A DNA stretch of 64,000 nt from positions 810,149 to 874,148 of the forward strand of contig JAEHCO010000001.1 of assembly GCA_020697715.1 (NCBI GenBank), given 5' to 3'. A program made the position numbers and the translations under genes. The notes below the pieces were generated by a model that was not told the origin of the DNA, made no database searches, and worked only from the letters and a program-made list of their open reading frames with translations. The first letter of the stretch is position 1. Each line of letters begins with the position of its first letter. The stretch is from Methanobacteriota archaeon. Lineage in GTDB: Archaea; Thermoplasmatota; Thermoplasmata; SG8-5; JAGLSY01. Shown piece by piece: positions 24,488 to 43,818 of the stretch.

Positions 24488-26674
24488 TCACTTTATCTTT
24501 GACCCTGGCTTCATGTCCTTGTCAGAAACTATGTTCATATTTCCTGTTCTAAGGAGAAGCTCCGAATCCGCACTCATGATAGCTGCTTTATTGCCATCTC
24601 TTATTTTCAGGGTGACATTCTGGAATTCTGGAAAGCTGATCTGTTTCGCGCCCTCTGCTCCAGAGATCCTATCACCTGGCTTTGCATCGCCATCAGGCAT
24701 CAATATGGATACCTTCTCATCATCACTCGCGGCCAGGAGCATGCACTGGGATTCAATCCCCCTCAGCTTTGCTGGTTTCAGATTGCAGACAACTGTTATT
24801 GTTTTACCAGCCAGCTCCTCTTTTGAATAGTGTTCTTTGAGGCCAGCCACCAATTGCCTTTCCTCATCTCCGAGATCGATGATCATGACAATGAGTTTGT
24901 CAGCATCCGGGTGGTCATGCACCTCGGCGATCCTGCCGATCCTCAGATCCAGCTTCTTTAGTTCATCTGCTGGGCTAGCTATCTTTTCTTCAATAGTGGT
25001 GTCGGTATCCATTTCATCGTCCTCCTCAATTTCTTCTAGCTTTTTGAATAATGGCTCTGGCTTTTTGAGTTCTGTACCTGATATAGGTGGCTCGATTGCC
25101 TTGTTCCAATTATCTTTGTCAAGCACTTGTCCTTCCTCTCCAAGTGCTTCCCACAATTTCTGGGATGAGAAAGGCAAATATGGTGCGAAGATAACAGCCA
25201 GTGCTTTCGAGATGCGAAGAGAAGTATGGAGAGTTATGGCACATTTATCCCTATCTTGCTTCAATTCAGCCCATGGAGCCTTTGTGTCAATGTACTGATT
25301 TCCAAAGCGTGCTAATTCCATAGCACGTTTTATCCCTCGCTTGAACTCACATTTATCCAGATGTTCTGCAACATCATGCACAACGGCCTTGATCTCTTCC
25401 AATGCTTCCTCATCCGGAGCACTCAATTGGCCAGGCTCGTCCGGTATCTGGCCAAAGTTCTTCTGTGTGAAGCTCAGGGTCCTATGAACGAAGTTCCCAT
25501 AAGTAGCAACAAGTTCATTGTTGTTCCTGGTCTGGAAATCTTCCCATGTGAAATCAGTGTCGCGGTTCTCTGGCATGGTCGTGGTCATGTAATATCTCAT
25601 GGCGTCGGGCTCATATTTCTCAACAATATCCTTTATCGAGACTGAAACACCGCGAGATTTGGAGAATTGCTGACCTCCAAATCTGAGGTATGCATTTCCT
25701 GGAACATCATAGGGCAGGTTAAGATCCTTATCAAAGGAACGGAGAACTGCTGGCCAGAATATTGTGTGAAATGGGATATTGTCCTTTCCGAGGAAGTAAT
25801 AATGACGGCATTCGGGGTTCTTCCAGAAGCTCTCGAGCTTCTGTTCATCCACCTGGCCATCCTTATCCATCGCCCATTTGACAGCCATCGTGTAATAGCC
25901 CATGAAGGCCTCGAACCAAACATATATTCTCTTATCATCATGTCCGTCAAAAGGTATTTTGATCCCATAGGTGGTATCTCGGGTAACTGGCCTGTCTTTC
26001 AATCCGCCTTCTATGAACATCCTGGAGAAATTGAGAACATGAGGTCGCCAGTAGTCTTTATCCGACATCCATTCCTTCAGTTCTTGCTCAAGGGCGCTCA
26101 GTTTGAAGAAGAAATGACTGCGTGTGACGAACTTCGGCTCCGAGCCACAGGCCGTGCATCTGAGAGATATCAGCATATCTGGATCCATGAGCTTTCCACA
26201 TTCCTCGCATTGATCGCCTCTGGCATTCTCATAATGGCAGAAGGGGCATTCGCCCTCCACATACCGGTCTGGCAGGGTTCTGTCGCATTCGCCACAATAG
26301 GGTAGTTCCATCTCTTTCTCGTAGAGGTAGCCATTCTCGTGAATTGTCTTGAACAAATGGCTCACGGTCTCGATATGAACTGGATCCTCGGTGCTGTGGA
26401 ATTCATCGAACTCGATCCCGAAGTCCTTGAGCGCTTTGTCATTCATGGTGTGGTATTTCTGGGCCAGCTCCTCTGGTCTGATGCCCTCTTTCTCGGCTCC
26501 CACAGTGACTGGGGTGCCGTGCATATCCGAGCCAGATACCATCAGGACCTCGTTGCCTCTCATGATATGGAATTTACGGAATATGTCGGGGGGAAGGTTG
26601 CATCCAGCCATGTGGCCGACATGAATTGGGCCATTGGCATAGGGCCAGGCCACTCCTATGAATATCTTGCTCAT
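24488..26674 (-). CDS. metG: Methionyl-tRNA synthetase with C-terminal tRNA-binding OB domain
   Basis: PYANGPIHVGH, two Zn knuckles, GKDNIPFH, FSKS, HPDADKL...NLKPAKLRG. Confidence 0.97.
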   Translation of the reverse strand: MSKIFIGVAWPYANGPIHVGHMAGCNLPPDIFRKFHIMRGNEVLMVSGSDMHGTPVTVGAEKEGIRPEELAQKYHTMNDKALKDFGIEFDEFHSTEDPVHIETVSHLFKTIHENGYLYEKEMELPYCGECDRTLPDRYVEGECPFCHYENARGDQCEECGKLMDPDMLISLRCTACGSEPKFVTRSHFFFKLSALEQELKEWMSDKDYWRPHVLNFSRMFIEGGLKDRPVTRDTTYGIKIPFDGHDDKRIYVWFEAFMGYYTMAVKWAMDKDGQVDEQKLESFWKNPECRHYYFLGKDNIPFHTIFWPAVLRSFDKDLNLPYDVPGNAYLRFGGQQFSKSRGVSVSIKDIVEKYEPDAMRYYMTTTMPENRDTDFTWEDFQTRNNNELVATYGNFVHRTLSFTQKNFGQIPDEPGQLSAPDEEALEEIKAVVHDVAEHLDKCEFKRGIKRAMELARFGNQYIDTKAPWAELKQDRDKCAITLHTSLRISKALAVIFAPYLPFSSQKLWEALGEEGQVLDKDNWNKAIEPPISGTELKKPEPLFKKLEEIEEDDEMDTDTTIEEKIASPADELKKLDLRIGRIAEVHDHPDADKLIVMIIDLGDEERQLVAGLKEHYSKEELAGKTITVVCNLKPAKLRGIESQCMLLAASDDEKVSILMPDGDAKPGDRISGAEGAKQISFPEFQNVTLKIRDGNKAAIMSADSELLLRTGNMNIVSDKDMKPGSKIK

Positions 26675-26774
26675 TTTAAGCACCTCTGTAGGGCTGATAC
26701 GGATATAGGATTTATAATTTTATGAGTACAGAATGTATTTGTAAATGAATAAAACGGTATGAGGTCCGAGATGG

Positions 26775-26927: not shown

Positions 26928-26930
26928 GAG

Positions 26931-27003
26931 GGCCGAGACCGAGAATTGAACCCGGGACGAGGGCTCCACAGGCCCCCAGGATAACCACTACCCCACCCCG
27001 GCC
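26931..27003 (-). tRNA. tRNA-His(GTG), G-1 encoded, CCA not fully encoded
   Basis: G-GCCGGGG...TCTCGGC-C acceptor stem; anticodon loop CTGTGGA; GTTCAATTC T-loop. Confidence 0.95.
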
Positions 27004-27140: not shown

Positions 27141-28163
27141 ATGGCAGAAGGGGAAGGGCCAATTCCAATTATATCAGCCAGTGATCTGGAGAAGTACGGA
27201 TACTGTCCAATGAGCTGGTGGTTGAGCATTGGCCTCTCTAATGAGAAAGAGGAGGACAAAAAGGTATTAGCTACCGGTCAGGAGAAGCACAATAGCCTGA
27301 GTCAGGACCTTACCAGTATCTTGGAAGGGGAGAGCATGGCGAAGGAATCCGAGACCATTGTTCTTTGGTTCGCTATCGCGGCCACCCTCATATCTTTGGT
27401 CGGCCTATCTCTGGTGTTCAAAGCAGATCTCAATATCGGTCTTATAATGGGGGTCATTGCTCTTATTTGGATACTCGCGGCCTGTTATTTTCTCTATCTA
27501 GCAGAGACGATATCACATAAAAAGACCATAATGGTCTATCAAAGAATAATCCTTATATTTGCAATTGTCGGAGCCATCATCGGAGTCAATTCCCTTACTA
27601 TCCTTGAGCAATATTTCAGTCCGGAAATGGCCGAGATAATGCTTGCCATTTCACTAACCTGGCTTGTCGCCGCTTCTTATTTCCTGTACAGATCGTTGAA
27701 GCACTTTCATGACGCGATGAAGAAAAGACAGTTGAGAAAGGTAAAGGAAAAGATATCTTATGTGGATACTGAAGATAAGAAACCCAAATTATTCATATCC
27801 AAGAAGCTGGGTCTTAGTGGTAGGCCTGATTATGTGCTCGTGATAGATGAGGGTCACATACCCGTGGAGGTCAAGACTGGGCGAACACCCCGGGGACCAT
27901 TGTTCTCCCATATACTTCAAACCGCAGCCTATTGCATCCTGATAGATGAAAAATATGGCGAGGCTCCCCCCTATGGGATCTTAAGGTATGATAAGGCCGA
28001 GCATGAGATAGAGTATGACGAATCCCTCAAGGACCTGGTCATCACAAAGCTCAAGGAAATGCGAAATATCTTGATAACAAAGGAAGTGCACAGGAATCAT
28101 AATAAGCCAGGCAAGTGCAAGAATTGTTCAAGAAGGTCCATTTGCCAGGAAAGATTGGACTGA
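27141..28163 (+). CDS. cas4: Solo Cas4-like PD-(D/E)xK Fe-S nuclease with four inserted TM helices
   Basis: SASDLEKYGYCP; GRPDYV, VEVKTG, QTAAY; C-terminal CKNC...C; hydrophobic segments at about aa 73-185. Confidence 0.85.
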   Translation: MAEGEGPIPIISASDLEKYGYCPMSWWLSIGLSNEKEEDKKVLATGQEKHNSLSQDLTSILEGESMAKESETIVLWFAIAATLISLVGLSLVFKADLNIGLIMGVIALIWILAACYFLYLAETISHKKTIMVYQRIILIFAIVGAIIGVNSLTILEQYFSPEMAEIMLAISLTWLVAASYFLYRSLKHFHDAMKKRQLRKVKEKISYVDTEDKKPKLFISKKLGLSGRPDYVLVIDEGHIPVEVKTGRTPRGPLFSHILQTAAYCILIDEKYGEAPPYGILRYDKAEHEIEYDESLKDLVITKLKEMRNILITKEVHRNHNKPGKCKNCSRRSICQERLD

Positions 28164-28223
28164 TAGCAATAATTATTTTAAGGGTGCTGGCAGCATGTAT
28201 TTTTAATTATGAAGGATTCATAA

Positions 28224-28550
28224 TTATTTGATATCCTGTTCATAATTGAGACCACTGAGAAGAGCCATTTCCGCCTTCTGGATCTCCCTGCCAAGGTAAG
28301 CCGCGTGTTCCATCCTAGAGACCAGATTCTCTCTGATTATGGTGTGACAAAGGGCTTCAGCATTTCTTCCACATACAGTGGCCATCAACTTGCCAGTATC
28401 TGTCTTTTTTGAATCCTTGCCTTTGGAGACATTCTCATAGAACTCGACAACTATCTCCTTTCTTGATTTATCTATGAATATTACAAAGAATCCTTTGGGA
28501 TCCAGTATCAGGCGCACATCTTTTTCTGCTTCAATTGTCTCCATGCTCAT
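28224..28550 (-). CDS. DUF4346 domain protein
   Basis: LDPKGFFVI...GRNAEALC...HAAYLGREIQKAE...YEQD. Confidence 0.85.
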   Translation of the reverse strand: MSMETIEAEKDVRLILDPKGFFVIFIDKSRKEIVVEFYENVSKGKDSKKTDTGKLMATVCGRNAEALCHTIIRENLVSRMEHAAYLGREIQKAEMALLSGLNYEQDIK

Positions 28551-28566
28551 ATCGATTTCCTCCAGT

Positions 28567-29538
28567 TCATTTTGTGATCATCAGCTCCTTCTCAACCAGA
28601 TCTCTGGCCTCCACCATATTTCTTAGTTTTTGGCAGGCGACCTTTTGATCAAGGTTCCGCAACCCGCAATCCGGGTCGAGTAAGAGCTTATCCTCACTAA
28701 ATAGGTCGAGCCCCTTTAAAATCCTTTCTTTGATTTTATCAACACTTTCCGCTTCATTGACATCGGATCGAACACATCCGAATCCCAGCTTATGCGGGAA
28801 GTCATATCCCGAGACAAAATCATCAAGGCCAGTATGCGCCGCGAACTCATGGTCAAGTATATCGACATCGATCTCGATCAAGTCTTCGAACAAGGGCTTG
28901 ATATCACCACATACATGAAGGGCCTTGTCAACATTCGTGTTCTTCAGGACGATTTCTACCAGATCCTTACCGTACTCTGGCCGATCTATCGAGAAGAAGG
29001 GCTCGTCCACCTGTATGATATCGACGATGTCCGAGATGGCTTCCACTTCCTTCGAAAGAGACTCCGCGATATCGAAGGCCAGGTTTTCCACATTACCGTA
29101 ATGCTCATCCACGCAGGAGCGGGCCATCGTGTACGCTCCTGTCACGATGCCTTTGATCCTCACATTGTCCCCGACAAGACTTCTCGCATACAGGAGATCA
29201 TCATGGGTTATTGGAGAATCGAATGATACGTCACCGATCACCACTGGCCGGGTCTTCATCCTTATGCCATTGAGCTTCGACGCAAAGAGGGTGACCATGT
29301 CATTCCTGGTCTGCCCATCTGAAATGATATCTATGCCAGCTTCCAGCTGAGCCTGTATGGAATCCTCCAGGCTTTTTTTGAAGGGATCTGGGTCAATAGA
29401 AGATCCCTGATCTTGAGCAGCATCTTCCATTGATGTCATGCGCCCCACATCAATGTTATATGACCTTTCAAAGTCCCTGCCTCGAGGTCTGGCTGGGAAG
29501 CTTCCGACTACCGTGGTCGTCAATCTATGTCCGCTCAC
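28567..29538 (-). CDS. Core (single-barrel) methionine synthase, MesA-like
   Basis: TTVVGSFP, ISDGQ, KGIVTG, IQVDEP; Zn ligands HVC, HE, PDCG; no N-terminal folate-binding barrel. Confidence 0.88.
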   Translation of the reverse strand: MSGHRLTTTVVGSFPARPRGRDFERSYNIDVGRMTSMEDAAQDQGSSIDPDPFKKSLEDSIQAQLEAGIDIISDGQTRNDMVTLFASKLNGIRMKTRPVVIGDVSFDSPITHDDLLYARSLVGDNVRIKGIVTGAYTMARSCVDEHYGNVENLAFDIAESLSKEVEAISDIVDIIQVDEPFFSIDRPEYGKDLVEIVLKNTNVDKALHVCGDIKPLFEDLIEIDVDILDHEFAAHTGLDDFVSGYDFPHKLGFGCVRSDVNEAESVDKIKERILKGLDLFSEDKLLLDPDCGLRNLDQKVACQKLRNMVEARDLVEKELMITK

Positions 29539-30464
29539 TTCAATCTCCTCTTTGGATGATCCTCGGGTATCTCGATGCCGAAATAATCCTCACCGCCCTC
29601 GGCAATGAACTTGTCCACCATCGCGATGAATGGGAATATCTGGCCAGCATTTCTCATTGGTCCGTATACGCAGTAATCGGCTCCCATCATGACAGGCAGT
29701 GCGTTTGCCCCGACATCGCAAGTGAGATATGCCTCGCGATGTGTCTTTCTGTAATCCTTCATCCATAACCATGATTCCACGGTGTTGTGGATGGCACATC
29801 CTGCTGGCAATCCCCATTTGTTCTTCATCACGGGGATCGACCTGATGGTCTCTGCCGTATTGTGATCAAAGGGAGTCGCGCCAGTATCTATTATCATATT
29901 GGGAATATTGGCTTCTTTCGCAATATCCATGAGCCCTTGGTCCAGAAGGCCAGCACCATTCTCCAGTATCTCCATCCTGCCATCCGTGCTCATGTTCTTC
30001 GGATTGTAGCCCAGAACGATAGCGCAACCCGGCGGATTGTTAGCCAGTGCTTCTTTCTCCATCTCTTCCAATCCCAGGTTAAGGGAATTGTATATCAGCC
30101 TCGATGAGACGCCGATCTCCCCGGCGTGGTCCAGGACCTTCGCCCGGAGCTCGCTCTCTGGAACATCCACGCATATCGGCCTGTTCTCTGGAACTCGGTC
30201 CAGAACAAAGTTCAATCGGGTCTCTATTTGCTCTTCCGACCCGATGAATATATCACATATTCCTGGATTGCCAGTCATCTGGCTGAGTTCCTCTTGGGTG
30301 GCGATAAAACCAGCAATTTCCTCCATGGCCTCTGGTGCATGATCTCTGTATTTTTTACCGTAAAATACAGTTCCGAACAACACGGTGGGCAATTCTCCTG
30401 GCTGTCCACCCATGCTCATATCGCCTATCTTGATCTTTATTTGTTCTTTTGAAAAGTTCAACAT
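29535..30464 (-). CDS. mtrH: MtrH/MtxH-like methyl-tetrahydropterin:corrinoid methyltransferase
   Basis: FSKEQ...GGQPGELPTVLFGTVFY, IYNS, KWGLPAGCAIHN, GADYCVYGP. Confidence 0.88.
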   Translation of the reverse strand: MLNFSKEQIKIKIGDMSMGGQPGELPTVLFGTVFYGKKYRDHAPEAMEEIAGFIATQEELSQMTGNPGICDIFIGSEEQIETRLNFVLDRVPENRPICVDVPESELRAKVLDHAGEIGVSSRLIYNSLNLGLEEMEKEALANNPPGCAIVLGYNPKNMSTDGRMEILENGAGLLDQGLMDIAKEANIPNMIIDTGATPFDHNTAETIRSIPVMKNKWGLPAGCAIHNTVESWLWMKDYRKTHREAYLTCDVGANALPVMMGADYCVYGPMRNAGQIFPFIAMVDKFIAEGGEDYFGIEIPEDHPKRRLK

Positions 30465-31064
30465 TTAACTCTCCTCCACTGGCATTTCCTCGATCTCAAG
30501 AAAAGGATCGAGTATCAGGTCCTTGTGAAATCCTATCTTGCCCGTTAGTCTCTTAACGGACGGCCTGTCGCTATTCTTATTGTCCACGAACTCCACGATA
30601 TAAGGCTCTCCAAATGACTCATGGTCGATAGCCAGTTGTTCCTCCACGGCCTTCATGATCTCCTCATTATCGATCACATCGATCATGTTGATGATCTTGA
30701 TCTGGCTACGGAAACGCTCGATCGCTTCTTCATCAATATTCTCGATGAAGGGAACCGCTCCCTTCGCGCCCGATATCCTTCCATTGTCGTCCACTCCTTT
30801 GCTGTGAAGTGATAGAAGGCTATGGCCGGATCTGTGGCCGCGAACTTCCTCACCACATACTATAAGAACTCTGATAAGCGGATTGGAGATCACATTCGCT
30901 ACAACCTTCTCGATACCCAGGTTCTCGGTCTTCATGTGACCCCATATCGCGATTTTGTCTTTTGGAAAATCGATCTTACTGGCCAGTGTGACGATCGCCA
31001 CCGGGCTATCCGGGCTTCCAATTGTGTATTCTCCTCTCCATGGGTACATCATGTTCTCACTCAT
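30465..31064 (-). CDS. mtrA: Soluble MtrA/MtxA-like corrinoid protein
   Basis: PWRGEY..G, VAIVTLAS, KTENLGIEKVVANVISNP.IR, EVRGHRSG (Co-ligand His), PFIEN...RFRSQ; no C-terminal TM helix. Confidence 0.9.
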   Translation of the reverse strand: MSENMMYPWRGEYTIGSPDSPVAIVTLASKIDFPKDKIAIWGHMKTENLGIEKVVANVISNPLIRVLIVCGEEVRGHRSGHSLLSLHSKGVDDNGRISGAKGAVPFIENIDEEAIERFRSQIKIINMIDVIDNEEIMKAVEEQLAIDHESFGEPYIVEFVDNKNSDRPSVKRLTGKIGFHKDLILDPFLEIEEMPVEES

Positions 31065-31223
31065 TCTTTGAGCCAGGATTATGAGTTTCTACACTTAAAG
31101 ATATTTGCTGAAAGTGTCTCTGATAATGACAAGAATAATTCAGTGATATTCATCAATAATTTAGTAAATACCAAAGGACGACCCAAGGAAAATTATATAT
31201 TAGATAATAGATTGACCAGGCCT

Positions 31224-31315
31224 GTGTGAAGGGGCAAAATTATACCCTTCGGGGTACTATTTTAACTCTTCTTCCCACACCCCCTTCACACTCTCTAATA
31301 TTTGTTTGTTTTTTT
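31224..31315 (+). ncRNA. Candidate small structured RNA 1
   Basis: TTATATAT at 31193; 11-bp closing stem GTGTGAAGGGG/CCCCTTCACAC; inner hairpin with a C(UUCG)G tetraloop; oligo-T 3' end. Confidence 0.6.
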
Positions 31316-31421
31316 ACATTGCGAAAGTCCCATTACTAAAAAGTATATTTTTATCTCCAAATTCCTTCAAAAATGAACTTTCAAGGCGAAACACTTAAGC
31401 CTTGAATTAATAATGTATTCA

Positions 31422-31500
31422 TTGGCAAGACTGGAAGAAAGTGTTATTATCCTTCCACTTCTCTCGACTCTTTCTCCATTCTAGTCTTGCCAACTTATTT
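31422..31500 (+). ncRNA. Candidate small structured RNA 2
   Basis: 15-bp closing stem with one G-U pair that forms only on the plus strand; inner hairpin; 3' bulge ACTCTTTCTCCA. Confidence 0.45.
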
Positions 31501-31524
31501 TGTATAATTGGTAATCCATGATAG

Positions 31525-34500
31525 CTAACTTTGTTTATAAACCTTCTTGATATTCTTGGCCAGCCTTTCACTGATGCCCTTGACCTTGACCAATTCAGCC
31601 TCGGATGCCTTCTCCAGATCCTTGAAAGTCGTAAATCCCGCATCATGAACTGCCTCGGCCTTTGAGAATCCAACTCCTGGCACGCCCACAAGGGCATTGA
31701 CGAACTCCTTCTTCACTTCTTCCGGAGTATTGGCCTTTGGTTTTTCTTTCTTGTCATGTTTGACATCCAGTATGTCTTCCAATTCCTCGATGACCGCTTC
31801 TTCTTTCTCTTCCTCAGTGAACTTGGTCCCGCATTTGTCGCAGAACTTGTCATCTATATTGCCAATTGCGTCACAAGCTGGACATCGGAATTGTTCTCCC
31901 GCGATCATGTCATCCTCTATTTCTTCCGCGACCTCTATTTCCGTTCTGTCCAACTCTGGCTCGGGAGCCTTATCAGGTTCGACCTGCGATCCCAATCGTC
32001 TTACAGTGGCATCCCGATTCTTGATCGCATCCCTGAATCCAGGGTCTATGCCGAGTGCTCTTTCAAAGCACTCGAGGGCGAAAGTGTGCTCATCCATCCT
32101 TGAGAGCGCGATACCCTTATTGTTCCATGCTTCCGGATGTTCAGGGTCGAGAGTTATAGCTTTATCCAGGATCCTTATCGCTTTGTCCAGATCATCATCA
32201 CTGATCAGAACGAATCCTTTATTTGAAAGTAATAATGGAGTCTCATTTATGTTCAATGCCATGTCCAGGCAGGATATAGCTTCTTTGAACCTATCCATCT
32301 CGTACAATGCGGCAGCTTTGTCCGCCCATGCAATGTCATTATCTTGATCGATATCTATGGCCCTATCGAAGTACTTGATAGATCCTTCTGGGTTGCCAGA
32401 CGCGAGGATCGCATTTCCTTTATTGCACCAGGCCTCGGAGAAATCTGGATCTATCTGTATGGCTCTATCAAAGCACAGGATGGAGTCATCATGCTTTCCG
32501 ATGCTGAGCAAAGCAATACCTTCCGCGTTCCACACCTCGGATGATCCTGGCTCGATCTCGATCGCTCTGTCAAAGCTCTCGATGGCCTTCAGGGTGTCAC
32601 CGAGGCTCATGTGGATATTCGCTCTTTCTATCCACAATGCGGGCTCTTCCTTTTCTAGTTCTGTAAGCACATCATTGGCTCTCAGAGCATCTTCGAATTC
32701 CCCAATCTCGATCAATGATGTTGCTCGATTCATCATGGCTGAAATGTTATCTGGCTCCTTCTTCAGGACCTTGTCATAATATTCAATGGCATCATCGAAC
32801 CTTCCCATCAGATAAAGCAAATTAGCTTTCTCCAGTATTGATGATGCACGCTCCTCCAATTCGATGGTTGTGTTCAGGCAATCCAGTGCCTCATCGTACT
32901 TCATCATCCTTATCAGCATTTTTGATTTCTCGAAAAGAATGGAATATTCTCTGATCTCCTCTTCCAGAGCCAGATCTTCCTCCACCTGTTCAAGCTCTGG
33001 TGGATCTCCAACTGGAAGTTCCGATTCTGGTAATGGTACGGCATCCTCAACTCCATGGCCGCATTTGGCACAGAAAGCCGCCGCATCTGTAAGAGGTGCA
33101 TCGCATGCGGAGCAGTTTGGATCTGATCCAAGTCCTATGAGGTCGGCAAAGTCATTTGTCAATGATTCCTCTGTGATCGCCGGCTTTTTGCTTGCAGCCT
33201 TTTTAGCTGCAAGTTTTGATTCTTCTGCTTCCCTGGCCTCTCTTTCCTCAGCTTCCTTGAGAAGAAGTTTCTCTTCGAGTTCCTTTGCCTTTTCTTCCTC
33301 TTCGATAAGGCGGAGGCGCTCTTCTTCCGCCTCTCTTTCTCTTCTTTCTTCCAATTCCAAAAGACGGGATTCATCCATTTCTTTCAAAGCTTCCTCTGCC
33401 TTCTTCTTCTCCTCTATGGCCAGGTCCCAATATGGTTTAAGAAGAAGTGAATTGTCAAAAGCATCAATGGCCCTTCTTGGATCTTCCATCGCCATCAGCG
33501 CGATGCCCTTTTGATAGTAAACCTCGGGACTTTTCTCAAGCCCCAGTACCTTGTCATAACATGAGATGCAATGCTCATACTGCTCCATATCATGCAGTAG
33601 CAGTCCCTTATTTAGCCAGGCCTCTTTGTAATCATCCTTTTTCGCCGTGGCCTTGTCAAAGGATTCCAGTGCATTTCCGTAATCCTTGAGGTATTTGAGT
33701 GCCACGCCTTTGTTATTAAGCACATTGATATTGTCTGGCTCAAGGAGCAATACTTTGTCATAGCACAGCACCGCTTCCTCATGCTTGCCCTGCTCATGCA
33801 GTGTCGCGCCTTTATTGTTCCAGGCTTTGGTGAAATTCTTGTTTATCTTCAATGCCTGGTCATAGCACTGGATCTCATCTTCATATCTTTGTAGTTCGTA
33901 ATAGATAGCTCCAAGATTATACCATGATTCCTCACTATCTGGATTGACCTCAAGAGCCTTTTTGAAACATTCGGCGGCTTCTTCCATTCTTTTCATGGAC
34001 TTCAAAACACTGCCTTTCATGATCCAAGCCAGGTCATAGTTCGGCTTCATTTTCAAAGCATTATCGTAGTATTCGATAGCTTTCTTGAAATTACCTGAAT
34101 TGAAAAAGTCATTGCCCCATCTCATCTGGTTCTCCAGCTCGTCAATGCTGGGTAGGAACCTCTCTCCATCTTGTTCAAGCACTTTCTTCGAGTCCTGCTT
34201 CTTGAGATCATCATCAAGTTCCAGCTCTTTCAGGAGCAGACCGAATTTGTCCCCATCCGCGAGATTCACACCAAGAAGATCAGCATACTTCCTCGCATCC
34301 TTGGAGAGCTTGGTCGTGGATATGAAGATCGCTCTGACATCGACACCTCCTCTCTTCCTGCCGACCATCTTCTGGATGTCCTCGGGTCCAGCATCTGAAT
34401 GGCCCCGTTTTACTTTGATCACAAAGGGCTCTGAGTTTCCTTCAACTTCTCTCAGTGCTTCTATCTCCACATCATCGGCTCTCATGCGAGAACTGGTTAT

Positions 34501-34596
34501 CTTGAAGTCCATCTTCTCCAGTAGTTTATTGGATAGTATCCGGAACTCCTCTGGACCGAGGTCATTGACTATGTTCATGAGATATTCCTGACCCAT
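31525..34596 (-). CDS. Mrr-like (degenerate restriction endonuclease fold) + TPR + Zn ribbons + C-terminal HhH protein
   Basis: N-terminal PEEFR...FVIKVKR...FISTT...DGDKF; TPR blocks; CSAC/CAKC and CPAC/CDKC; VPGVG...VKGIS; ATG 34596 after GGAGGGAGG. Confidence 0.8.
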   Translation of the reverse strand: MGQEYLMNIVNDLGPEEFRILSNKLLEKMDFKITSSRMRADDVEIEALREVEGNSEPFVIKVKRGHSDAGPEDIQKMVGRKRGGVDVRAIFISTTKLSKDARKYADLLGVNLADGDKFGLLLKELELDDDLKKQDSKKVLEQDGERFLPSIDELENQMRWGNDFFNSGNFKKAIEYYDNALKMKPNYDLAWIMKGSVLKSMKRMEEAAECFKKALEVNPDSEESWYNLGAIYYELQRYEDEIQCYDQALKINKNFTKAWNNKGATLHEQGKHEEAVLCYDKVLLLEPDNINVLNNKGVALKYLKDYGNALESFDKATAKKDDYKEAWLNKGLLLHDMEQYEHCISCYDKVLGLEKSPEVYYQKGIALMAMEDPRRAIDAFDNSLLLKPYWDLAIEEKKKAEEALKEMDESRLLELEERREREAEEERLRLIEEEEKAKELEEKLLLKEAEEREAREAEESKLAAKKAASKKPAITEESLTNDFADLIGLGSDPNCSACDAPLTDAAAFCAKCGHGVEDAVPLPESELPVGDPPELEQVEEDLALEEEIREYSILFEKSKMLIRMMKYDEALDCLNTTIELEERASSILEKANLLYLMGRFDDAIEYYDKVLKKEPDNISAMMNRATSLIEIGEFEDALRANDVLTELEKEEPALWIERANIHMSLGDTLKAIESFDRAIEIEPGSSEVWNAEGIALLSIGKHDDSILCFDRAIQIDPDFSEAWCNKGNAILASGNPEGSIKYFDRAIDIDQDNDIAWADKAAALYEMDRFKEAISCLDMALNINETPLLLSNKGFVLISDDDLDKAIRILDKAITLDPEHPEAWNNKGIALSRMDEHTFALECFERALGIDPGFRDAIKNRDATVRRLGSQVEPDKAPEPELDRTEIEVAEEIEDDMIAGEQFRCPACDAIGNIDDKFCDKCGTKFTEEEKEEAVIEELEDILDVKHDKKEKPKANTPEEVKKEFVNALVGVPGVGFSKAEAVHDAGFTTFKDLEKASEAELVKVKGISERLAKNIKKVYKQS

Positions 34597-34598
34597 GT

Positions 34599-37500
34599 TC
34601 AGCCTCCCTCCCTCAACCTTTTTGTACTTCTCTTCTTCCATGATCCAGCCTCTTCATGTTCGGGGTCCAATTCCAGGACCTTATCAAAGCTAATGATGGC
34701 CTGTTTATACTTTTCGGCCTCGTGCATGGTGACCCCTCTAGCCAACCAATTCTTTGGATTGTCCTTCCCCATCTTCACAGAGTAATCCATCGATCTTATG
34801 GCATCATCGTATTTGCCGATGTCCTTCTGTGCGACTCCCAGCAATCTCCATAGATAATCATTCTCTGGGTTTAATTTCAAAGCTTCTCTGTAAAGATTGA
34901 TGGCCTCATTATATCCACCATTCTTGTACATAAGACGTCCTTTTCCTATCAGGGCATCGCTATTCTCACCATCGACCTCTATGGCGAGATCATAAGCCTC
35001 TCGGGATTCATCGATCTTTCCCTGGCTTCGATGAACATCTCCTTTCAGAGTGAGTGCCCGACTATCATTCGGATATATTCTCAATGCGCTGTCCAGAGCT
35101 TGAATAGCTCCACCCCACTTGCCCTTCCTTAGCATTATATCCGCCTTGCCGATCAAAGCATCCGCATTGGTTGGAGCGAATTTGAGCAGTCCTTTATAGA
35201 TATTCTCTGCTTCATCCACCTTGTCCTTTTCCAATAGCATGTTCGCCTTCTTTATCCAGGCGTATTCATATTCTTCATCAAGGCTTATGGCCCTGTCATA
35301 GAATTGTAAAGCCCCGCCCCATCTTCCTTTCTGATGGAGAACATCTGCTTTTTTGGCCCATGCTTCTGGTTCATCTGGGTCTATATCAGATGCTTTCTCA
35401 TAGCATTTGTAGGCCTCGTCATATCTTTCGAGCCCTGCAAATCCATCTCCTATGCCCAGCCAGGCATCCATATTGTTCACATCTACCTCGATAATACCAT
35501 TGAAGCACACGATAGCGTCTTCGTACATCTCATTCTCAAGGTCGATGGTTCCCAGTAGGAATCGTGCATCAATGTGATCCTTATCAAGCTCTGTGGCTTT
35601 TTTCAATGACGCGACAGCTTCATCAAATTCTTCAATATCGTAGAGTCCTCTTCCTTTCTGGTACAAGGCCTCTATATTATCCTCATCTGACTCAAGGACC
35701 CTGTCCAACATCCTGAGTCCTTGTTTCTCGCGACCCATGTCTATCAATAATACTGCCTTGCCGGTCTGGAATTGAAGATTATCAGGGTTCAGATTGATAC
35801 CCGTATCGTAGCAAAGAAGGGCTCCCTCTTCATCCCCTTCTTCTATGAGCTCTTCAGCCCTTTCCAGAAGAGCCTCCTCATCATTGGATGGATCATGATC
35901 TTCGAGATCCTCATCCTCATCCTCATGATCGTCCTCCTCATCCAGTTCTTCATCCTCAACTTCCTCTTCAGGATCATCATCTTCCTCATCCGGCTCATCA
36001 TGGATAACTATGTCCTCTCCTTCAAGGACAAGCATATCTTCTGGATTCAGCATATCGACGATGTCCGCCTCTGTCTGCAGCTCTTCGATATCTGCGGCTT
36101 CTTCGATGATGGGAATGTCATCCACTTCTTTGCTTGGAGTTTCGGTATCTGATTTCGGCCCGCCCATTTTACCAAAGATATCATCGACATCCTGGAACCC
36201 TGCTTCGACATCAACGGTTCCTAACTCCGCCTCGACATCGATGGAGCCCTCATCTTCTTCCACATCTGTGTCAAGTGCATCTGTAAGGTCAGCGATACCC
36301 GATTTTTCTATCTCATCCACGGTATCTTCAATTTCATCATCTTCATGATCATCATCCTCATGATCATCCTCTTCAACCTCATCCTCAAAAGCCTCTTCTA
36401 TATCGGAGACCAGGTCTTCCTCAACAGGAAGCTCTGGCTCTGGCTGTGACTCTGGCTCTGTGGCTTCATCAATATCGGCCATGAGCTCGTCTTCCAGGGA
36501 TAGTTGATCATCAATGACATCGGCATCATCTTCATGATCTATATCATCTTCAATGACCTCATCAATTTCTTCCTCTATCGATGGCTCTGGAGTTATATCA
36601 TCATCAATTATTTCTTCGATCGGGGTCTCAAGTTCTGCTGGCATCTCAGTTTCTGCCGGCAATTCCACTGGATCTTCTTCCTTTATCTCAGATACTGGTT
36701 CCTCTGGTAGGGTCACACTTTCCGGGTGAAGTGGCAGTGGCTTCTTCTCCATCCGCCTGATGAATTTCGGTCTCGATGTGATGGTTTTGGCCAGATCATA
36801 ACATTCAACAGCCTCGTCTATGCTTCCGAGCTTGGTGAGTGCGTCACCCTTTCCTATCAGTGCCTCTGGGTGATTCTCATCCAGCTTGAGTGAAAAGTCA
36901 TAGCACATTATGGCTTCTTTATATTTGCCGATGGATAGCAGTGCGTCGCCCTTGTGCTTCCAGATGCCAGCTTCTTTCGGGGATAATAATAATGCTCTAT
37001 CAAAGCTCCTCAATGCATCCTCTTCTTCTCCAATATGAAGGTGAGCGGTTCCCTTGACATTCCAGATGATCCCATCTTCCGGATCCATGTCAAGGTATTC
37101 CTTGCTGGCTTCAATAGCCTCCTGAAACCTCTCTATAGAATAAAGGATTATAATGTGATTTCTCCTTGCTGGCATATATCCATCATCTTCCACCAAAGCT
37201 CTTTCATATTGCTTCAGAGCATAATCCGCACACCTGCTTTTGATCATCTTCGCATCCTTGTCATCAAATGCGATATTATCCTTCACCGCATTGACATTGA
37301 GCCAGGATACATTTCCTATCATGGTCTCCGCCCTTGCGCCAAGATCAAGCTCCGTGTATTTCTCATGAAGATCGTGAGCCATATCCTTCAGTCTATTTCC
37401 TATGTCTACCGCTTCCTTCGTGATAAGTATGCTCTCATCTGGCTCTATCTGGACCGGGATGCCAAGATGTTGGAGAAGACGCTTTATCTTCGATACTTGT

Positions 37501-37769
37501 TTTTCTATATCCTTCTCCTTCTCAATATTATTCTGGATCTTGTCAACATCATCTTCCAGGGATGCCAGTGATCCAAAGGACATGGCTTGGGTCGATGATG
37601 GTCCGATAATAATGGTCAAGGAGCCCATTTTTCTGGCTCTTGTGAGTGGACTTTCTCCTATCAATGAATATCCCGTGATAAGGGCCGGAGAATTATCTAG
37701 GCCTTGCTTCGTGCATGTGCCACATATCAGCCCACCACGGATCAGCTCTCCACAACCTATACAGTCCAA
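34599..37769 (-). CDS. Large TPR protein with N-terminal CxxC pair and long acidic linker
   Basis: CIGC/CGTC, two TPR blocks separated by about 280 D/E-rich residues. Confidence 0.82.
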   Translation of the reverse strand: MDCIGCGELIRGGLICGTCTKQGLDNSPALITGYSLIGESPLTRARKMGSLTIIIGPSSTQAMSFGSLASLEDDVDKIQNNIEKEKDIEKQVSKIKRLLQHLGIPVQIEPDESILITKEAVDIGNRLKDMAHDLHEKYTELDLGARAETMIGNVSWLNVNAVKDNIAFDDKDAKMIKSRCADYALKQYERALVEDDGYMPARRNHIIILYSIERFQEAIEASKEYLDMDPEDGIIWNVKGTAHLHIGEEEDALRSFDRALLLSPKEAGIWKHKGDALLSIGKYKEAIMCYDFSLKLDENHPEALIGKGDALTKLGSIDEAVECYDLAKTITSRPKFIRRMEKKPLPLHPESVTLPEEPVSEIKEEDPVELPAETEMPAELETPIEEIIDDDITPEPSIEEEIDEVIEDDIDHEDDADVIDDQLSLEDELMADIDEATEPESQPEPELPVEEDLVSDIEEAFEDEVEEDDHEDDDHEDDEIEDTVDEIEKSGIADLTDALDTDVEEDEGSIDVEAELGTVDVEAGFQDVDDIFGKMGGPKSDTETPSKEVDDIPIIEEAADIEELQTEADIVDMLNPEDMLVLEGEDIVIHDEPDEEDDDPEEEVEDEELDEEDDHEDEDEDLEDHDPSNDEEALLERAEELIEEGDEEGALLCYDTGINLNPDNLQFQTGKAVLLIDMGREKQGLRMLDRVLESDEDNIEALYQKGRGLYDIEEFDEAVASLKKATELDKDHIDARFLLGTIDLENEMYEDAIVCFNGIIEVDVNNMDAWLGIGDGFAGLERYDEAYKCYEKASDIDPDEPEAWAKKADVLHQKGRWGGALQFYDRAISLDEEYEYAWIKKANMLLEKDKVDEAENIYKGLLKFAPTNADALIGKADIMLRKGKWGGAIQALDSALRIYPNDSRALTLKGDVHRSQGKIDESREAYDLAIEVDGENSDALIGKGRLMYKNGGYNEAINLYREALKLNPENDYLWRLLGVAQKDIGKYDDAIRSMDYSVKMGKDNPKNWLARGVTMHEAEKYKQAIISFDKVLELDPEHEEAGSWKKRSTKRLREGG

Positions 37770-40020: not shown

Positions 40021-40959
40021 ATGTCAACTGGCAGTGGTTTCGGAAAGGCAATATTGTTCGGCGAACATTTCGTCGTGTATGGGAAAGCGTCGATAGCTTC
40101 AGGAATATCAAAGAAGACAACGGTGACACTTGTCGAAGGAAAAGAGCCTGGCTTCAAAATAATCGACAAGAGACCGGCGGCTGATGGCTATATCGAGAAG
40201 TACGCGGAAGCTCAGCGCGAGTCTGTCGAGCTCATGAACAAAGCGGTCTGGCATCTGGATTTTGATGCCAATCCGGTCGAGGTCACCATCGGAGGCGACC
40301 TTTACTGCGCCTCCGGTGTAGGTGCTTCAGCGGCCAGTTGCGTCGCAATGGCCAGGGCTGTTTCCGAGCATTTCAATCTCAATTTGAATGATGAGCAGAT
40401 AAACCTCTGCGGCCTGGAAGGCGACAAGGCCTATGCCGGCACACCCAGTGGCATTGACAATACCTGCTCCACCTATGGCGGTCTTATTTTCTTCAGAAAG
40501 AACCTGGATGGCGGCTCCAATCAGATGGATCAGATAACTCTCGGCAAACCATTGAACATCCTCCTGGTATCAACAGGTGTGACGACCAAGACAAAGCAAG
40601 CTGTCGATGGCGTTCGGGAAAGAAAGGAGAAGGATCCAGAATATTACGAGCCTATCTTTGACCAGGCTGAGGAACTGGTCATCCTGGCAAAGGATGCTCT
40701 TGCACAAGGTAATTTGATAAAAGTGGGCCAGCTTATGGATCAGAATCACACTCTCCTGCAGGAAATTCGAGTATCACATCCAAAGCTTGATCATCTGGTC
40801 GATCTCACAAGGGAGAATGGAGCCCTTGGCGCGAAGATGACTGGTGGTGGCATGGGTGGATACATGATCGCGCTCTTTGCGGATGAGGAAACACAAGAAC
40901 TGGCTGCCCGAGTCTGTGAATCTGAAGGGTTCAAGGTCATCAGGGCGAGAATTGGATGA
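40021..40959 (+). CDS. mvk: Mevalonate kinase
   Basis: GKAILFGEHFVVYG, SGVGASAA, PSGID, GAKMTGGGMGG. Confidence 0.92.
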   Translation: MSTGSGFGKAILFGEHFVVYGKASIASGISKKTTVTLVEGKEPGFKIIDKRPAADGYIEKYAEAQRESVELMNKAVWHLDFDANPVEVTIGGDLYCASGVGASAASCVAMARAVSEHFNLNLNDEQINLCGLEGDKAYAGTPSGIDNTCSTYGGLIFFRKNLDGGSNQMDQITLGKPLNILLVSTGVTTKTKQAVDGVRERKEKDPEYYEPIFDQAEELVILAKDALAQGNLIKVGQLMDQNHTLLQEIRVSHPKLDHLVDLTRENGALGAKMTGGGMGGYMIALFADEETQELAARVCESEGFKVIRARIG

Positions 40960-41022
40960 TCATCCCACCCGAATAGTTATAAACTAATTTTTCATTACTA
41001 TATCCCATAAGGGAGTGTGTGA

Positions 41023-42336
41023 ATGGATCTACGTAAGTTCTTGGACAAGCTGGAAGCCAGTGGCAAATTGATAAGGGTGACTAAAGAGGTAAGCACGGAA
41101 TACGAGATAGCCAATGTCATCAATTCTTTTGGAGAGCAGCCGATCATCTTTGAAAATGTGAAGGACAGTGATTTTCCAGTATTTGCCGGGATCACATCTT
41201 CCAGAGATATTATCGCAGACGGCCTGGGGACTGTGAAAGAGGATCTCCTTCTCAAGATGGTGAATGCTCTTCGTGAGCCAGTGGAGCCAGATATGGTTGA
41301 CGGAGCTGACGCACCGTGTCAAGAAGTGGTCGTCCACGATCCAGATCTTTCTAGAGTTCCTTTTTTGATGCATCTGGAAGGCGATGGCGGTAGATACGCC
41401 ACCGCCACGTGTGCTATTATCAAGGATCCTGAAACTGGCCGTAATATGTCCTATCATAGATTGATGTATCGCGGTGGAAATAAATTCACAGCCAGGCTTA
41501 TTCCCAAACGGCAGACCAGGACCACTTATGACAAGGTGGAAGGCGAGGTGGAGATCGCGGTCTGTATTGGAAATTCCGTTCCCGTGATGATAGCGGCTTC
41601 CCTTGGACCAGCACCAGGAACTGACGAATTGGCAATAGCTAATTCATTGGGAAAGACCGACCTCGTTAAGTGTGTGACAAAAGATCTGGAAGTTCCAGCC
41701 AGCAGTGAGATCGTCCTCGAAGGTAGGCTGATCAAGCAGGCGGATATTGAAGGACCATTTGTCGACCTTACTGAAACTCGCGATTTCGAAAGGCAGGAGC
41801 CTATATTTGTCGTGGATTGCATCACGCATAGGAAGGACGCGATGTACCAGGCACTTCTGGCGGGTCGGAACGAGCATAAACTATTGATGGGTATGCCGAA
41901 AGAACCCACCATATACGATGAAGTTAGCAAAGTCTGCAAATGCACGAACGCGGTCATCACACTGGGTGGAGGATCGTGGCTGCATGGTGTTGTTCAAATT
42001 CAGAAGCAAAATGAGGATGATGGAAGGAAAGCGATCGAAGCAGCTTTCCTCGGTCACAAGAGCATGAAGCACGTGATAGTGGTCGAAGATGATGTGGATA
42101 TCTTCGATCCCATAGCGATAGAATGGGCAATAGCTACCAGGTTCCAGGCTCACAAGGATGCGATCATCATGCCGGATCAACCCGGATCTTCGCTGGACCC
42201 ATCCGGGGATCACAGTGGCAAGAAGACCATGATCACGAAAGTGGGATTGGATGTGACCAAGCCGGCTGGAGTGGATCCAGCCAAGTACGTGAAAGTAAGC
42301 TACAAGGATGTGAATGTTGATGAATACCGTGGGTGA
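41023..42336 (+). CDS. UbiD-family decarboxylase, likely anhydromevalonate phosphate decarboxylase
   Basis: SYHR, EIVLEG, EGPFVDLT, VEDDVDIF...EWAIATR, SSLDPS; flanked by mvk and AcnX genes. Confidence 0.88.
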   Translation: MDLRKFLDKLEASGKLIRVTKEVSTEYEIANVINSFGEQPIIFENVKDSDFPVFAGITSSRDIIADGLGTVKEDLLLKMVNALREPVEPDMVDGADAPCQEVVVHDPDLSRVPFLMHLEGDGGRYATATCAIIKDPETGRNMSYHRLMYRGGNKFTARLIPKRQTRTTYDKVEGEVEIAVCIGNSVPVMIAASLGPAPGTDELAIANSLGKTDLVKCVTKDLEVPASSEIVLEGRLIKQADIEGPFVDLTETRDFERQEPIFVVDCITHRKDAMYQALLAGRNEHKLLMGMPKEPTIYDEVSKVCKCTNAVITLGGGSWLHGVVQIQKQNEDDGRKAIEAAFLGHKSMKHVIVVEDDVDIFDPIAIEWAIATRFQAHKDAIIMPDQPGSSLDPSGDHSGKKTMITKVGLDVTKPAGVDPAKYVKVSYKDVNVDEYRG

Positions 42337-42637
42337 AGGGAAATTCAGGGTCTGGCTCCAATGCGAGGGCATAGGCAATGACCTGGTCTACATGCTTGGT
42401 GGCGGTCAGAGATCGCATATAGGGAGCATAGTTCTCAAGATACCGCAGAAAGAAGTGGAAATATTGAACCTGGAAGGACATTATGATCACAGGGTGCTGG
42501 TGCCTATTGCGGAGGCGGCAGCCCAGAAGTATCACAAGAAAGTGGTGGCACTGGGTGGAGTTCACATTGATGATGCGACCAAGGAAGAAATTGAACAATT
42601 GGTCGCCAATTGCATGGAGTTGATAAAGTGCATCTGA
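42314..42637 (+). CDS. LpdD-like / PAC-fold small protein, candidate prFMN chaperone
   Basis: GGG..SHIG, EGHYD, GGVHIDDAT; overlaps both neighbouring genes. Confidence 0.72.
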   Translation: MLMNTVGEGKFRVWLQCEGIGNDLVYMLGGGQRSHIGSIVLKIPQKEVEILNLEGHYDHRVLVPIAEAAAQKYHKKVVALGGVHIDDATKEEIEQLVANCMELIKCI

Positions 42638-43818
42638 CGAAAGAGCAGGAAGGCATGCTGGCTGGAGAACAGGGAGAAGTTGTGGAACGATTATTCCGCC
42701 TGCTTGTCCGATTGGGCGACATCTATGGCGCGGAGGAAATGATTCCCGTTGGTAGTGTGCAGGTCGCAGGTGTGTCATACAAGTCCATTGGTGATCCCGG
42801 TCTGGAATTTCTTGAGGACTTCGCGGCCAAAGGAGCGAAGGTCAAGACACTTACATATCTCAACCCTGCTGGCATGGACATGGAGAACTGGAAAGAAGTT
42901 GGCTTTCCAGAGGACTTCGCCAAGCCCCAGATAAGGATAATGGAAGCCTTCAGAAAGATGGGCATAGTGGTCACGGCCACATGCACTCCTTACCTCGCTG
43001 GCAATCTGCCAAGGTACAGGGAGCACATCGCGTGGTCCGAATCTTCTGCGGTATCATTTTCCAATTCCGTTATCGGAGCCAGGACCAATCGAGAAGGTGG
43101 CCCATCAGCACTGGCAGCCGCGATATGTGGTGTGACCCCGAACTACGGTCTGCATCTTGATGAGAATCGCAAGCCAAACATAATTGTGAAAGTGGATAAA
43201 GAATTGGAATTCAGCTCGGACTATGGAGCATTGGGATATCATGTTGGAAAGCAGGTGAAGAACAAAATACCTTATTTCACCGGAATACCCAGCTCGGCCA
43301 ATACGGATCAATTAAAAGCACTCGGAGCAGCCATGGCGGCCTCCGGAGCCGTCGCGCTTTACCATGCAGAGGGCCTGACACCCGAAGCTCAATTGATGGA
43401 TGTATCTGGATTGGAGACCATCAATGTCGGAAAGGAGGAGATGGCCACTACTTACGAGACTCTGAACACAGGATCCATACCGGACATCGCGATACTTGGA
43501 TGTCCGCATGCGTCATTGCGAGAAATAGGGAGTTTGGCTGGCAAACTAGAGGGCTTGAAGCTCAAAAGACCCATCTGGATATGCACTTCCAGGGTGATGA
43601 AGGAAGCTGCCGATCGCATGGGATTCATCACTATCATAGAGAATGCCGGGGGCAGGGTGGTCGCCGATACCTGCATGGTGGTCTCACCCATTGAGGAAAT
43701 GGGTTTCAATATTACAGGTGTGAATTCAGGAAAGGCCGCGAACTACTTGCCTGGCTTCTGCCAGCAACAGGTTGTTTTCCATGATGTGGATGAGCTCATA
43801 AGGAGGCTGTCAGCATGA
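42628..43818 (+). CDS. Aconitase X large subunit (phosphomevalonate dehydratase L)
   Basis: QVAGVSYK, NPAG, TCTPY, WSESSA, TNREGGP, GCPH, DTC, NSGKAA; GTG start at 42628. Confidence 0.92.
   Translation: MHLTKEQEGMLAGEQGEVVERLFRLLVRLGDIYGAEEMIPVGSVQVAGVSYKSIGDPGLEFLEDFAAKGAKVKTLTYLNPAGMDMENWKEVGFPEDFAKPQIRIMEAFRKMGIVVTATCTPYLAGNLPRYREHIAWSESSAVSFSNSVIGARTNREGGPSALAAAICGVTPNYGLHLDENRKPNIIVKVDKELEFSSDYGALGYHVGKQVKNKIPYFTGIPSSANTDQLKALGAAMAASGAVALYHAEGLTPEAQLMDVSGLETINVGKEEMATTYETLNTGSIPDIAILGCPHASLREIGSLAGKLEGLKLKRPIWICTSRVMKEAADRMGFITIIENAGGRVVADTCMVVSPIEEMGFNITGVNSGKAANYLPGFCQQQVVFHDVDELIRRLSA

Follow-up and report, generated by a model that had tools for sequence, protein, structure and literature searches.

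A 64,000-nucleotide (nt) stretch of contig JAEHCO010000001.1 (positions 810,149 to 874,148), here called the window, comes from a Methanobacteriota archaeon of the SG8-5 lineage of the Thermoplasmatota and carries four co-directional genes encoding an MtrA-like protein, an MtrH-type protein, a MesA-like single-barrel protein (Mes) and a stand-alone DUF4346 protein (Table 1), which together probably specify a soluble cobamide-dependent methionine synthase. A preliminary description, drawn from the nucleotide sequence, had presented the locus as a run of four tightly coupled genes, and the positions of the open reading frames, the spacing (0 nt between mtrA and mtrH, a 4-nt overlap of the GTG start of mes with the mtrH stop, and 16 nt between mes and the DUF4346 gene) and the Pfam matches bear this out. 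Because of the tight spacing, the AT-rich spacer upstream of mtrA and the presence of a convergent Cas4-like gene that ends 60 nt past the DUF4346 gene, the four genes look like one unit. An Rfam scan of positions 26500-32000 returned only a tRNA-His and no riboswitch by the operon. The Pfam cut-offs, among them 22.8 bits for MtrH (PF02007) and a gathering score of 29.6 bits for DUF4346 (PF14251), are far exceeded by all four proteins.

Table 1. Genes and other features of the operon and of its surroundings in the window (aa, amino acids)
Feature	Position	Strand	Description
metG	24488..26683	-	
tRNA-His	26930..27002	-	
Cas4-like gene	27141..28163	+	stand-alone Cas4-like PD-(D/E)XK nuclease; TIGR00372 88.9 bits (cut-off 65)
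DUF4346 gene	28224..28550	-	108 aa, stand-alone; PF14251 PterinBD-DUF4346 96 bits; GGAGG 8 nt before ATG
mes	28567..29538	-	323 aa, GTG start; MesA-like single-barrel Zn methionine synthase (predicted); PF01717 Meth_synt_2 154.2 bits
mtrH	29535..30464	-	309 aa; MtrH-type putative methyl-pterin:corrinoid methyltransferase; PF02007 258.6 bits; TIGR01114 277.2 bits
mtrA-like	30465..31064	-	199 aa; soluble MtrA-type putative cobamide-binding protein; PF04208 183 bits
Intergenic region upstream of mtrA	31065..31524	-	460 nt, AT-rich; presumed promoter region
TPR-rich protein gene	31525..34641	-	product of more than 1000 aa
TPR-rich protein gene	34599..37769	-	product of more than 1000 aa
Gene cluster	40021..44198	+	GHMP kinase, UbiD-family decarboxylase, PAC_bac protein, AcnX large and small subunits
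mptA	60302..61216	-	NCBIfam MptA equivalog 322.5 bits (cut-off 220)

Results

The best match of the MtrA-like protein in the PDB is 5laa (159 bits), the cytoplasmic MtrA homologue of Methanothermus fervidus with cobalamin, and its His77 and Glu47, which are invariant across 18 MtrA sequences of the cluster, align with His84 and Glu54 of that protein, reported as the cobalt ligand and its partner, respectively (PMC4915002). The protein has the features that define the Rossmann-type cobamide domain of MtrA (PF04208), including the ligand histidine and the glutamate, and would be expected to bind a cobamide. No 19-residue window reaches a Kyte-Doolittle value of 1.6 in any of the four proteins; the maximum of the MtrA-like protein, 1.51, lies within the Rossmann core and not at the C-terminus, where a conserved tail of about 40 aa with an LHxxLxxDP-like motif is found in place of a hydrophobic end. 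Alignment and hydropathy are thus in accordance with the earlier view of a soluble MtrA that keeps the cobalt-ligand histidine and lacks a membrane anchor. A role as a subunit of the MtrA-H membrane complex was also considered and rejected, given the absence of a hydrophobic C-terminus and of MtrE, the one membrane subunit of the complex that was searched for individually in the genome. The genome holds one MtrA and one MtrH gene. The product of the latter exceeds the cut-offs of PF02007 and of TIGR01114 (271.4 bits), which define MtrH and its pterin-binding barrel, and matches NF047990, the model of the tetrahydrofolate (H4F)-dependent MtgA, more weakly (146.8 bits).

Mes, encoded by the only Meth_synt_2 gene of the genome, fits the NCBIfam model NF002119 'methionine synthase' (279 bits, cut-off 258) better than NF003317 (198 bits). 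The former acts as a MesA model, to which proteins of Methanocella and Methanobrevibacter (M. filiformis) score 342-361 bits, whereas the catalytic subunits of split MetE fit the latter best, as in Thermofilum (NF002119 254 vs NF003317 484). The MetE-type zinc ligands H208, C210, E231 and C291 and the homocysteine-holding residues S13, Q76 and D178 are conserved in the window protein, and both sets, including the MesA-type glutamine, are invariant among the compared synthases; this glutamine, in place of Glu484 of MetE, is given by Price et al. as a feature of MesA and MesC (PMC7857596). In common with MesA, Mes has a single catalytic Meth_synt_2 domain, with no Meth_synt_1 domain or partner (no PF08267 match in the genome), as well as the His/Cys/Glu/Cys zinc ligands and the Ser, Gln and Asp substrate residues. 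It departs from MesA in one respect, since MesA is described as occurring only in methanogens and as grouping with methanogen sequences, and here neither McrA nor MtrE was found in the genome and the protein lies outside the methanogen clade. Its identity is 35-39% to Methanocella MesA and 30% to the M. filiformis protein; the MesA threshold of Price et al. (2021) refers to the characterised Methanothermobacter MesA (phmmer score of at least 174 bits, about 40% identity; PMC7857596).

A quick IQ-TREE analysis of 83 synthase rows, rooted on 7 split-MetE rows, united all MesA-like rows in one group (support 100) apart from split MetE. Within this group, a 20-row clade (Shimodaira-Hasegawa-like approximate likelihood ratio test, SH-aLRT, 98) of methanogen, Mnemosynella, Asgard, Nitrospinota and related sequences displays no link to mtrAH in its loci, and 50 of the 56 remaining MesA-like rows are linked to mtrAH and/or DUF4346. 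Based on its preference for NF002119 and its position in the tree, Mes is by sequence a MesA relative, distinct from split MetE and placed outside the clade of methanogen, Asgard and Nitrospinota proteins.

Other neighbors were observed beside MesA-like genes elsewhere. In Nitrospinota (L099:4113-4952 and 4995-5906) the gene is preceded by a Pterin_bind gene (PF00809, 288.6 bits) and followed by a 183-aa open reading frame with no Pfam match, and in Freyarchaeota (L100:4941-5846 and 5861-7297) it abuts an opposite-strand gene of the MTTB methyltransferase family. Other donor systems may feed MesA-like enzymes.

The source assembly comprises 2.12 Mb and is 93.8% complete, and absences reported for it are those of an incomplete genome. 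Genes for S-adenosylmethionine (SAM) synthetase and S-adenosylhomocysteine hydrolase are present, and a search for metH and full-length metE left Mes as the sole methionine-synthase candidate. McrA was not found in the genome. MetH was rejected, as TIGR02082 gave only two weak matches to B12 domains and PF02574 gave 0 matches; likewise, neither full-length MetE nor a Meth_synt_1 partner was detected, and a split MetE was further rejected on the grounds that NF003317 is not the best model for Mes and that a branch of support 100 separates the split-MetE rows.

Conservation of the cluster was assessed in loci retrieved with the synthase (25) or with the alignment (80) as query, over which the four window proteins were run by tblastn. 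In 45 of the 80 loci mes directly follows mtrA and/or mtrH on one strand, and these belong to several Thermoplasmatota lineages (including SG8-5, UBA147 and UBA280) and to Altiarchaeota, Undinarchaeota and UBA202, with the order MtrA-MtrH-Mes(-DUF4346) kept down to a Mes identity of about 39%. The cluster described in the window is therefore conserved well beyond it. In the loci of Methanocella, Methanobrevibacter, Mnemosynella, Asgard archaea and Nitrospinota the synthase was found alone.

A survey of 201 genomes of the window's class, whose tallies include one genome flagged as unpublished (G098) on which no claim depends, gave a similar picture. MtrA occurs in 50 genomes, in 44 of them as the window type (at least 159 bits), and MesA-like synthases (NF002119, at least 227 bits) occur in 44. 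The two sets share 43 genomes which, with two exceptions (G160, 61% complete, and G132, in which Mes is cut by the contig end), make up 45 cluster genomes. In 40 of the 43 the genes mtrA and mes lie on one contig and strand, and in 34 of these 40 they are separated by 1.0-1.2 kb, the length of one mtrH. DUF4346 was found in 44/45 cluster genomes vs 2/156 others, usually less than 100 nt downstream of Mes. McrA is present in 25 of the 201 genomes and in none of the 45, and it was not found in any of five genomes of Altiarchaeota, Undinarchaeota, UBA202 and SG8-5; PF02574, the homocysteine domain of MetH/BHMT, is present in 2 of the 201 and in none of the cluster families. In five genomes mtrAH is unlinked from Mes-DUF4346, and all five keep MtrA elsewhere.

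A different arrangement was seen in family f26, where one genome (G103, L113:5543-9715) encodes a longer MtrA of 264 aa and an MtrH; a RACo-type corrinoid activase gene adjoins the pair, and mcrA is some 10 kb away. The f26 genomes are McrA-positive and their MtrA is of a different type (131-145 bits); as they lack a MesA-type gene, the f26 MtrAH type probably has another role.

Regarding the source of the methyl group, MetF and FolD are encoded in the genome, metF lying 224 nt upstream of an archaeal SAM synthetase gene (G000:C28:132829-135179), and Mer and Mch were not found there. In the sister family f18 a gene of the methylenetetrahydrofolate reductase (MTHFR) family immediately precedes mtrA in all 21 testable genomes, forming a five-gene cluster metF-mtrA-mtrH-mes-DUF4346; the same position is occupied in G016, and the five unlinked genomes (L108-L112) have metF-mtrA-mtrH with 4-nt overlaps. 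MTHFR was found in 39 of the 45 cluster genomes and in 4 of 5 genomes of other phyla or lineages. Because MetF and FolD are present, Mer and Mch were not found and metF lies within the operon in the sister family, the methyl donor is most likely of the folate type (methyl-H4F) and not methyl-tetrahydromethanopterin (methyl-H4MPT), a donor that the preliminary description had allowed for and that we reject. The mptA gene that had been noted in the window is indeed there and passes the MptA equivalog; archaea that use folate employ MptA for its synthesis too, and this gene does not decide the identity of the pterin.

DUF4346 is encoded by a single copy in the genome. The protein displays 13-14 invariant residues, mostly polar, including D17, E36, Y38, H82, Y85, E89 and Q105, and its AlphaFold (AF2) model (pLDDT 82.5) consists of three strands and two helices. 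A sequence comparison with the PDB gave no relative (best E 0.14) and Foldseek nothing at E<=0.001; the best VIA-align Z score, 5.8 (ribosomal proteins, PSRP-3, EVH1), is under the stated noise level, and the protein atlas yielded nothing beyond scores of 0.86 with phage clusters. Of 7996 longer proteins scored with the cluster's DUF4346 profile, 2134 match at E<=1e-5, and among the best 120 of these 117 also contain an MtrA domain and two contain that of thymidylate synthase, and the remaining one bears the name dihydropteroate-synthase-like. MtrA-DUF4346 fusions were confirmed in at least 585 genomic stretches, mostly bacterial, and no MtrH or MetE-type gene was found among the four neighbors of each fusion in 35 of the 80 loci kept from these stretches. 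As MtrA is the domain with which DUF4346 is most frequently fused elsewhere, in settings that have nothing to do with methionine, its accessory role probably concerns the corrinoid module and not methionine synthesis as such. The earlier proposal of an accessory factor is therefore retained as far as conservation in the cluster goes, but the tie appears to be to MtrA. Despite travelling with the MtrA domain elsewhere, DUF4346 stays beside Mes in the split archaeal clusters.

The fusions occur in two further settings. At six loci of the candidate phyla radiation (CPR) and DPANN archaea (L180, L189, L190, L193, L166 and L176; approximately 5001-5860) a divergent, archaeal-type thymidylate synthase is encoded directly downstream, the CPR hosts being Parcubacteria, Saccharibacteria, Gottesmanbacteria and Nealsonbacteria; a dCTP deaminase gene lies upstream in three of the six and a thymidylate kinase gene further on in two, and P0069 and P0095 are fusions of DUF4346 to PF00303. 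That thymidylate synthesis in such tiny genomes might have a partner that binds a cobamide or a pterin seems unexplored. At about nine other loci (L121, L124, L126, L128, L137, L138, L163, L185 and L156; also L114:3958-5103), including one Thermoplasmata genome (G130), an ArsR-type regulator is encoded upstream, with thioredoxin/DsbD, P-type ATPase or RND genes nearby. These fusions have an N-terminal extension, Cys-rich in P0074, the single sequence inspected, and are found in a metal or metalloid setting with no MtrH or MetE-type gene nearby.

As for the genes flanking the operon, the preliminary description had placed metG about 1.5 kb downstream on the same strand. Distance (1541 nt) and strand are correct, but the proximity is retained only in one 88%-identical relative, and with the tRNA-His and the convergent Cas4-like gene in between, metG was rejected as a member of the operon. 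No cas genes were seen adjoining the Cas4-like gene, and the N-terminal half of its product (about 190 residues) is hydrophobic by eye. On the other side of the operon, two adjacent genes encode products rich in tetratricopeptide repeats (TPR) and with long acidic stretches, the one nearer to mtrA with a Mrr_cat nuclease domain at the N-terminus, a helix-hairpin-helix domain at the C-terminus and zinc ribbons. The GHMP kinase-UbiD-AcnX cluster further along would fit a mevalonate pathway of the archaeal type.

Discussion

We consider it probable that the operon encodes a soluble three-component, cobamide-dependent methionine synthase, in which MtrH, MtrA and the MesA-like protein act as a relay supplied by a methyl-folate-type donor. 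MetF, encoded elsewhere in this genome and inside the operon in the sister family, would reduce methylene-H4F, and MtrH would move the methyl group from methyl-H4F, or from an archaeal folate-like pterin, to the Co(I) of a cobamide bound His-on to the soluble MtrA. Methyl-Co(III)-MtrA would then dock on the MesA-like barrel, where a Zn-activated homocysteine thiolate would accept the methyl group to yield methionine. Such a relay would close the SAM cycle in an organism devoid of MetH, MetE and split MetE, and would do the work of MetH with separate polypeptides and no Na+ pumping; our guess is that DUF4346 works on the MtrA corrinoid module by shielding it, assisting its docking or keeping it active. 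These chemical steps, as well as their direction, the pterin and the binding of cobamide, are what we infer from the gene content, residues, synteny and co-occurrence observed. The relay as originally sketched, running from a methyl-pterin through MtrH, MtrA-cobamide and the synthase to homocysteine, finds its basis in synteny, co-occurrence, the zinc and homocysteine residues and the sole candidacy of Mes, and is narrowed to a donor that is most likely of the folate type; its portrayal as a MetH analogue made of unrelated parts was overstated, as MtrH and the pterin module of MetH are distantly homologous (PMC4632066).

Several observations weigh against this proposal. MTHFR was not seen in 6 of the 45 cluster genomes, five of which either are less than 80% complete or carry the cluster at the end of a contig, with G043, 94% complete, among the six, nor in the SG8-5 genome L015, and the MtrH of the window passes, if narrowly, the H4MPT-type equivalog TIGR01114. 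Neither a reductive activase of the RACo/RamA type nor a MetH-like reactivation module was found in the genome, which leaves the repair of Co(II) unexplained. Because CobS was not found in the genome, the cobamide is probably scavenged, for the Mes system and for methylmalonyl-CoA mutase, the B12-dependent mutase of which a subunit is present. The genome also encodes a second small B12-binding protein of 214 aa (C11:248852-249496), and if these archaea live on peptides, as they may, they would need a methionine synthase for recycling alone. By tblastn the locus is without DUF4346 in Undinarchaeota and some others, and this protein is therefore not essential. Finally, the gene set is also compatible with a catabolic methyl funnel working in reverse.

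In that reverse mode Mes would take a methyl group from methionine or a methyl-thioether and pass it through MtrA and MtrH to H4F, for oxidation by MetF and FolD. The list of parts is formally that of a methylotrophic three-component system, with metF adjoining in f18, and MtrH resembles MtgA, which works in the catabolic direction. However, by the established chemistry of MetH and MetE, passing the methyl of methionine on to cob(I)amide is strongly uphill, no activase of the kind that catabolic systems usually have was found, the genes occur in a single copy per genome with no substrate-specific paralogues, metF adjoins the SAM synthetase gene in this genome and no other methionine synthase was found, so that we regard a demethylase as very improbable. 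We see a similarly slight chance that MtrAH acts as a methyl-H4F (or methyl-H4MPT):thiol methyltransferase that feeds or drains a CoM-like (coenzyme M) or other methyl pool, with Mes methylating a thiol other than homocysteine. Functions of this sort were proposed for Methanomassiliicoccales 'Lake Pavin' in the text of Speth and Orphan (2018) and for Asgard Sifarchaeia and Jordarchaeia in that of Sun et al. (2021), a passage of Adam et al. (2022) allows that the Wood-Ljungdahl pathway may be supplied with methyl groups by MtrAH, and the methanogenic f26 pair, near mcrA and a RACo activase and without a MesA-type gene, would suit it. Yet McrA is missing from every cluster genome, the f26 MtrA is of another, lower-scoring type, the SG8-5 metagenome-assembled genomes that carry mtrAH are described by Zinke et al. 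as being without the Wood-Ljungdahl pathway, and the cluster genomes would be left with no methionine synthase.

Two alternatives keep Mes as a methionine synthase. In one, its donor would be the 214-aa B12-binding protein, free methyl-cobamide or another compound, MtrAH being merely co-regulated; characterised core synthases do use free methylcobalamin in vitro, with a high Km (PMC7005905, PMC11378808), and mtrAH is unlinked from Mes-DUF4346 in five genomes. Nevertheless, synteny and co-occurrence of Mes and MtrAH are near perfect across phyla, the five genomes still retain metF-mtrA-mtrH and no other acceptor is evident for the MtrA-bound methyl group, which makes such a donor unlikely. In the other, the same relay would draw on methyl-H4MPT as in methanogens, consistent with the score of MtrH against the methanogen equivalog and with the mptA gene. 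To this we attach hardly any probability, in view of the presence of MetF and FolD where Mer and Mch were not found, the metF gene within the f18 operon, the use of MptA in folate synthesis and the lack of a second DUF4346, and hence of a TIGR00284-type archaeal pterin synthase with that domain.

The proposed relay shares features with several known systems. Like MesA of methanogens, the enzyme of Schroeder and Thauer (1999), Mes has a single Meth_synt_2 barrel, an HCEC zinc site, Gln for Glu484 of MetE, NF002119 as the best model and a methyl-corrinoid protein as presumed donor; unlike it, the window organism is a non-methanogen, MtrA is dedicated and soluble and not part of the membrane Mtr complex, the genes form one operon with mtrH and DUF4346, and the donor pterin is probably of the folate type. 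In MetH the methyl group likewise passes from CH3-H4F to cob(I)amide and on to homocysteine held as a Zn thiolate, a path that the genes of the window suggest, and in the split MetH of marine bacteria (MtgCDE; PMC12478193) the modules also reside on separate polypeptides. In contrast to both, the homocysteine module of the window is of the MetE type and not PF02574, a reactivation domain is missing, and the corrinoid module is of the MtrA type, for which a different mode of cobalamin binding is reported (PMC4915002). The cytoplasmic MtrA homologues and the mtxXAH/mtrAH genes likewise provide a soluble MtrA of about 170-200 aa with the ligand histidine, paired with an MtrH paralogue, but the window operon also encodes a defined acceptor enzyme, giving a testable function. 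The catalytic subunit of the split MetE of thermophilic and halophilic archaea is a Meth_synt_2 protein of about 320 aa related to MesA; the window genome lacks its Meth_synt_1 partner, and Mes prefers the other model.

Partial precedent exists in the literature. Deobald et al. (2020) recall a proposal by Schroeder and Thauer of a corrinoid-protein donor, Price, Deutschbauer and Arkin (2021) predicted that MesA takes its methyl group from MtrA in methanogens (PMC7857596), and Price et al. (2024) mention adjacency of MesA and MtrA genes in a few genomes. In the texts of Speth and Orphan (2018) and Zinke et al. (2020), where the word 'methionine' occurs 0 times, mtrAH of these Thermoplasmata is taken for a CoM methyltransferase or said to have no known function, and the role of MtrAH outside methanogens is called unclear in a passage of Adam et al. 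(2022). No description of this operon was found in main texts, with the S1 Table of Price et al. (2021) and the MtrH trees of Zinke et al. and Adam et al. as places that could hold relevant rows, and a search on DUF4346/PF14251 returned no papers. The operon carries the published prediction over to non-methanogens and adds to it a dedicated soluble carrier, evidence from operon structure and a link to folate, and it offers the first direct handle on that prediction, as the donor is here a small soluble protein that can be expressed together with two partner enzymes.

Outside methanogens, MtrA and MtrH have been taken for methylotrophy genes or for what is left of methanogenesis, and a role in methionine synthesis would change those readings. 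If correct, it would explain why many non-methanogens keep 'methanogen' genes, and would fill in the missing methionine synthase of SG8-5 and UBA147-type Thermoplasmata, Altiarchaeota and Undinarchaeota, making these organisms cobamide-dependent for methionine. We may further hypothesize, as a possible but doubtful extension, that MtrA and DUF4346 constitute an ancient general-purpose soluble methyl-carrier module and not a part of methanogenesis, serving methionine synthase together with MtrH and a MesA-like barrel, and in its fused form other acceptors, such as a thymidylate-synthase-like enzyme in CPR and DPANN and ArsR-controlled metal(loid) operons in many bacteria. A 2026 reconstruction, in arguing that the ancestor was methanogenic, counts MtrA and MtrH at the root of the archaea. 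If this extension held, the presence of both proteins at deep archaeal nodes would reflect methionine biosynthesis and not methanogenesis, and the membrane Mtr pump would have been built from a biosynthetic relay.

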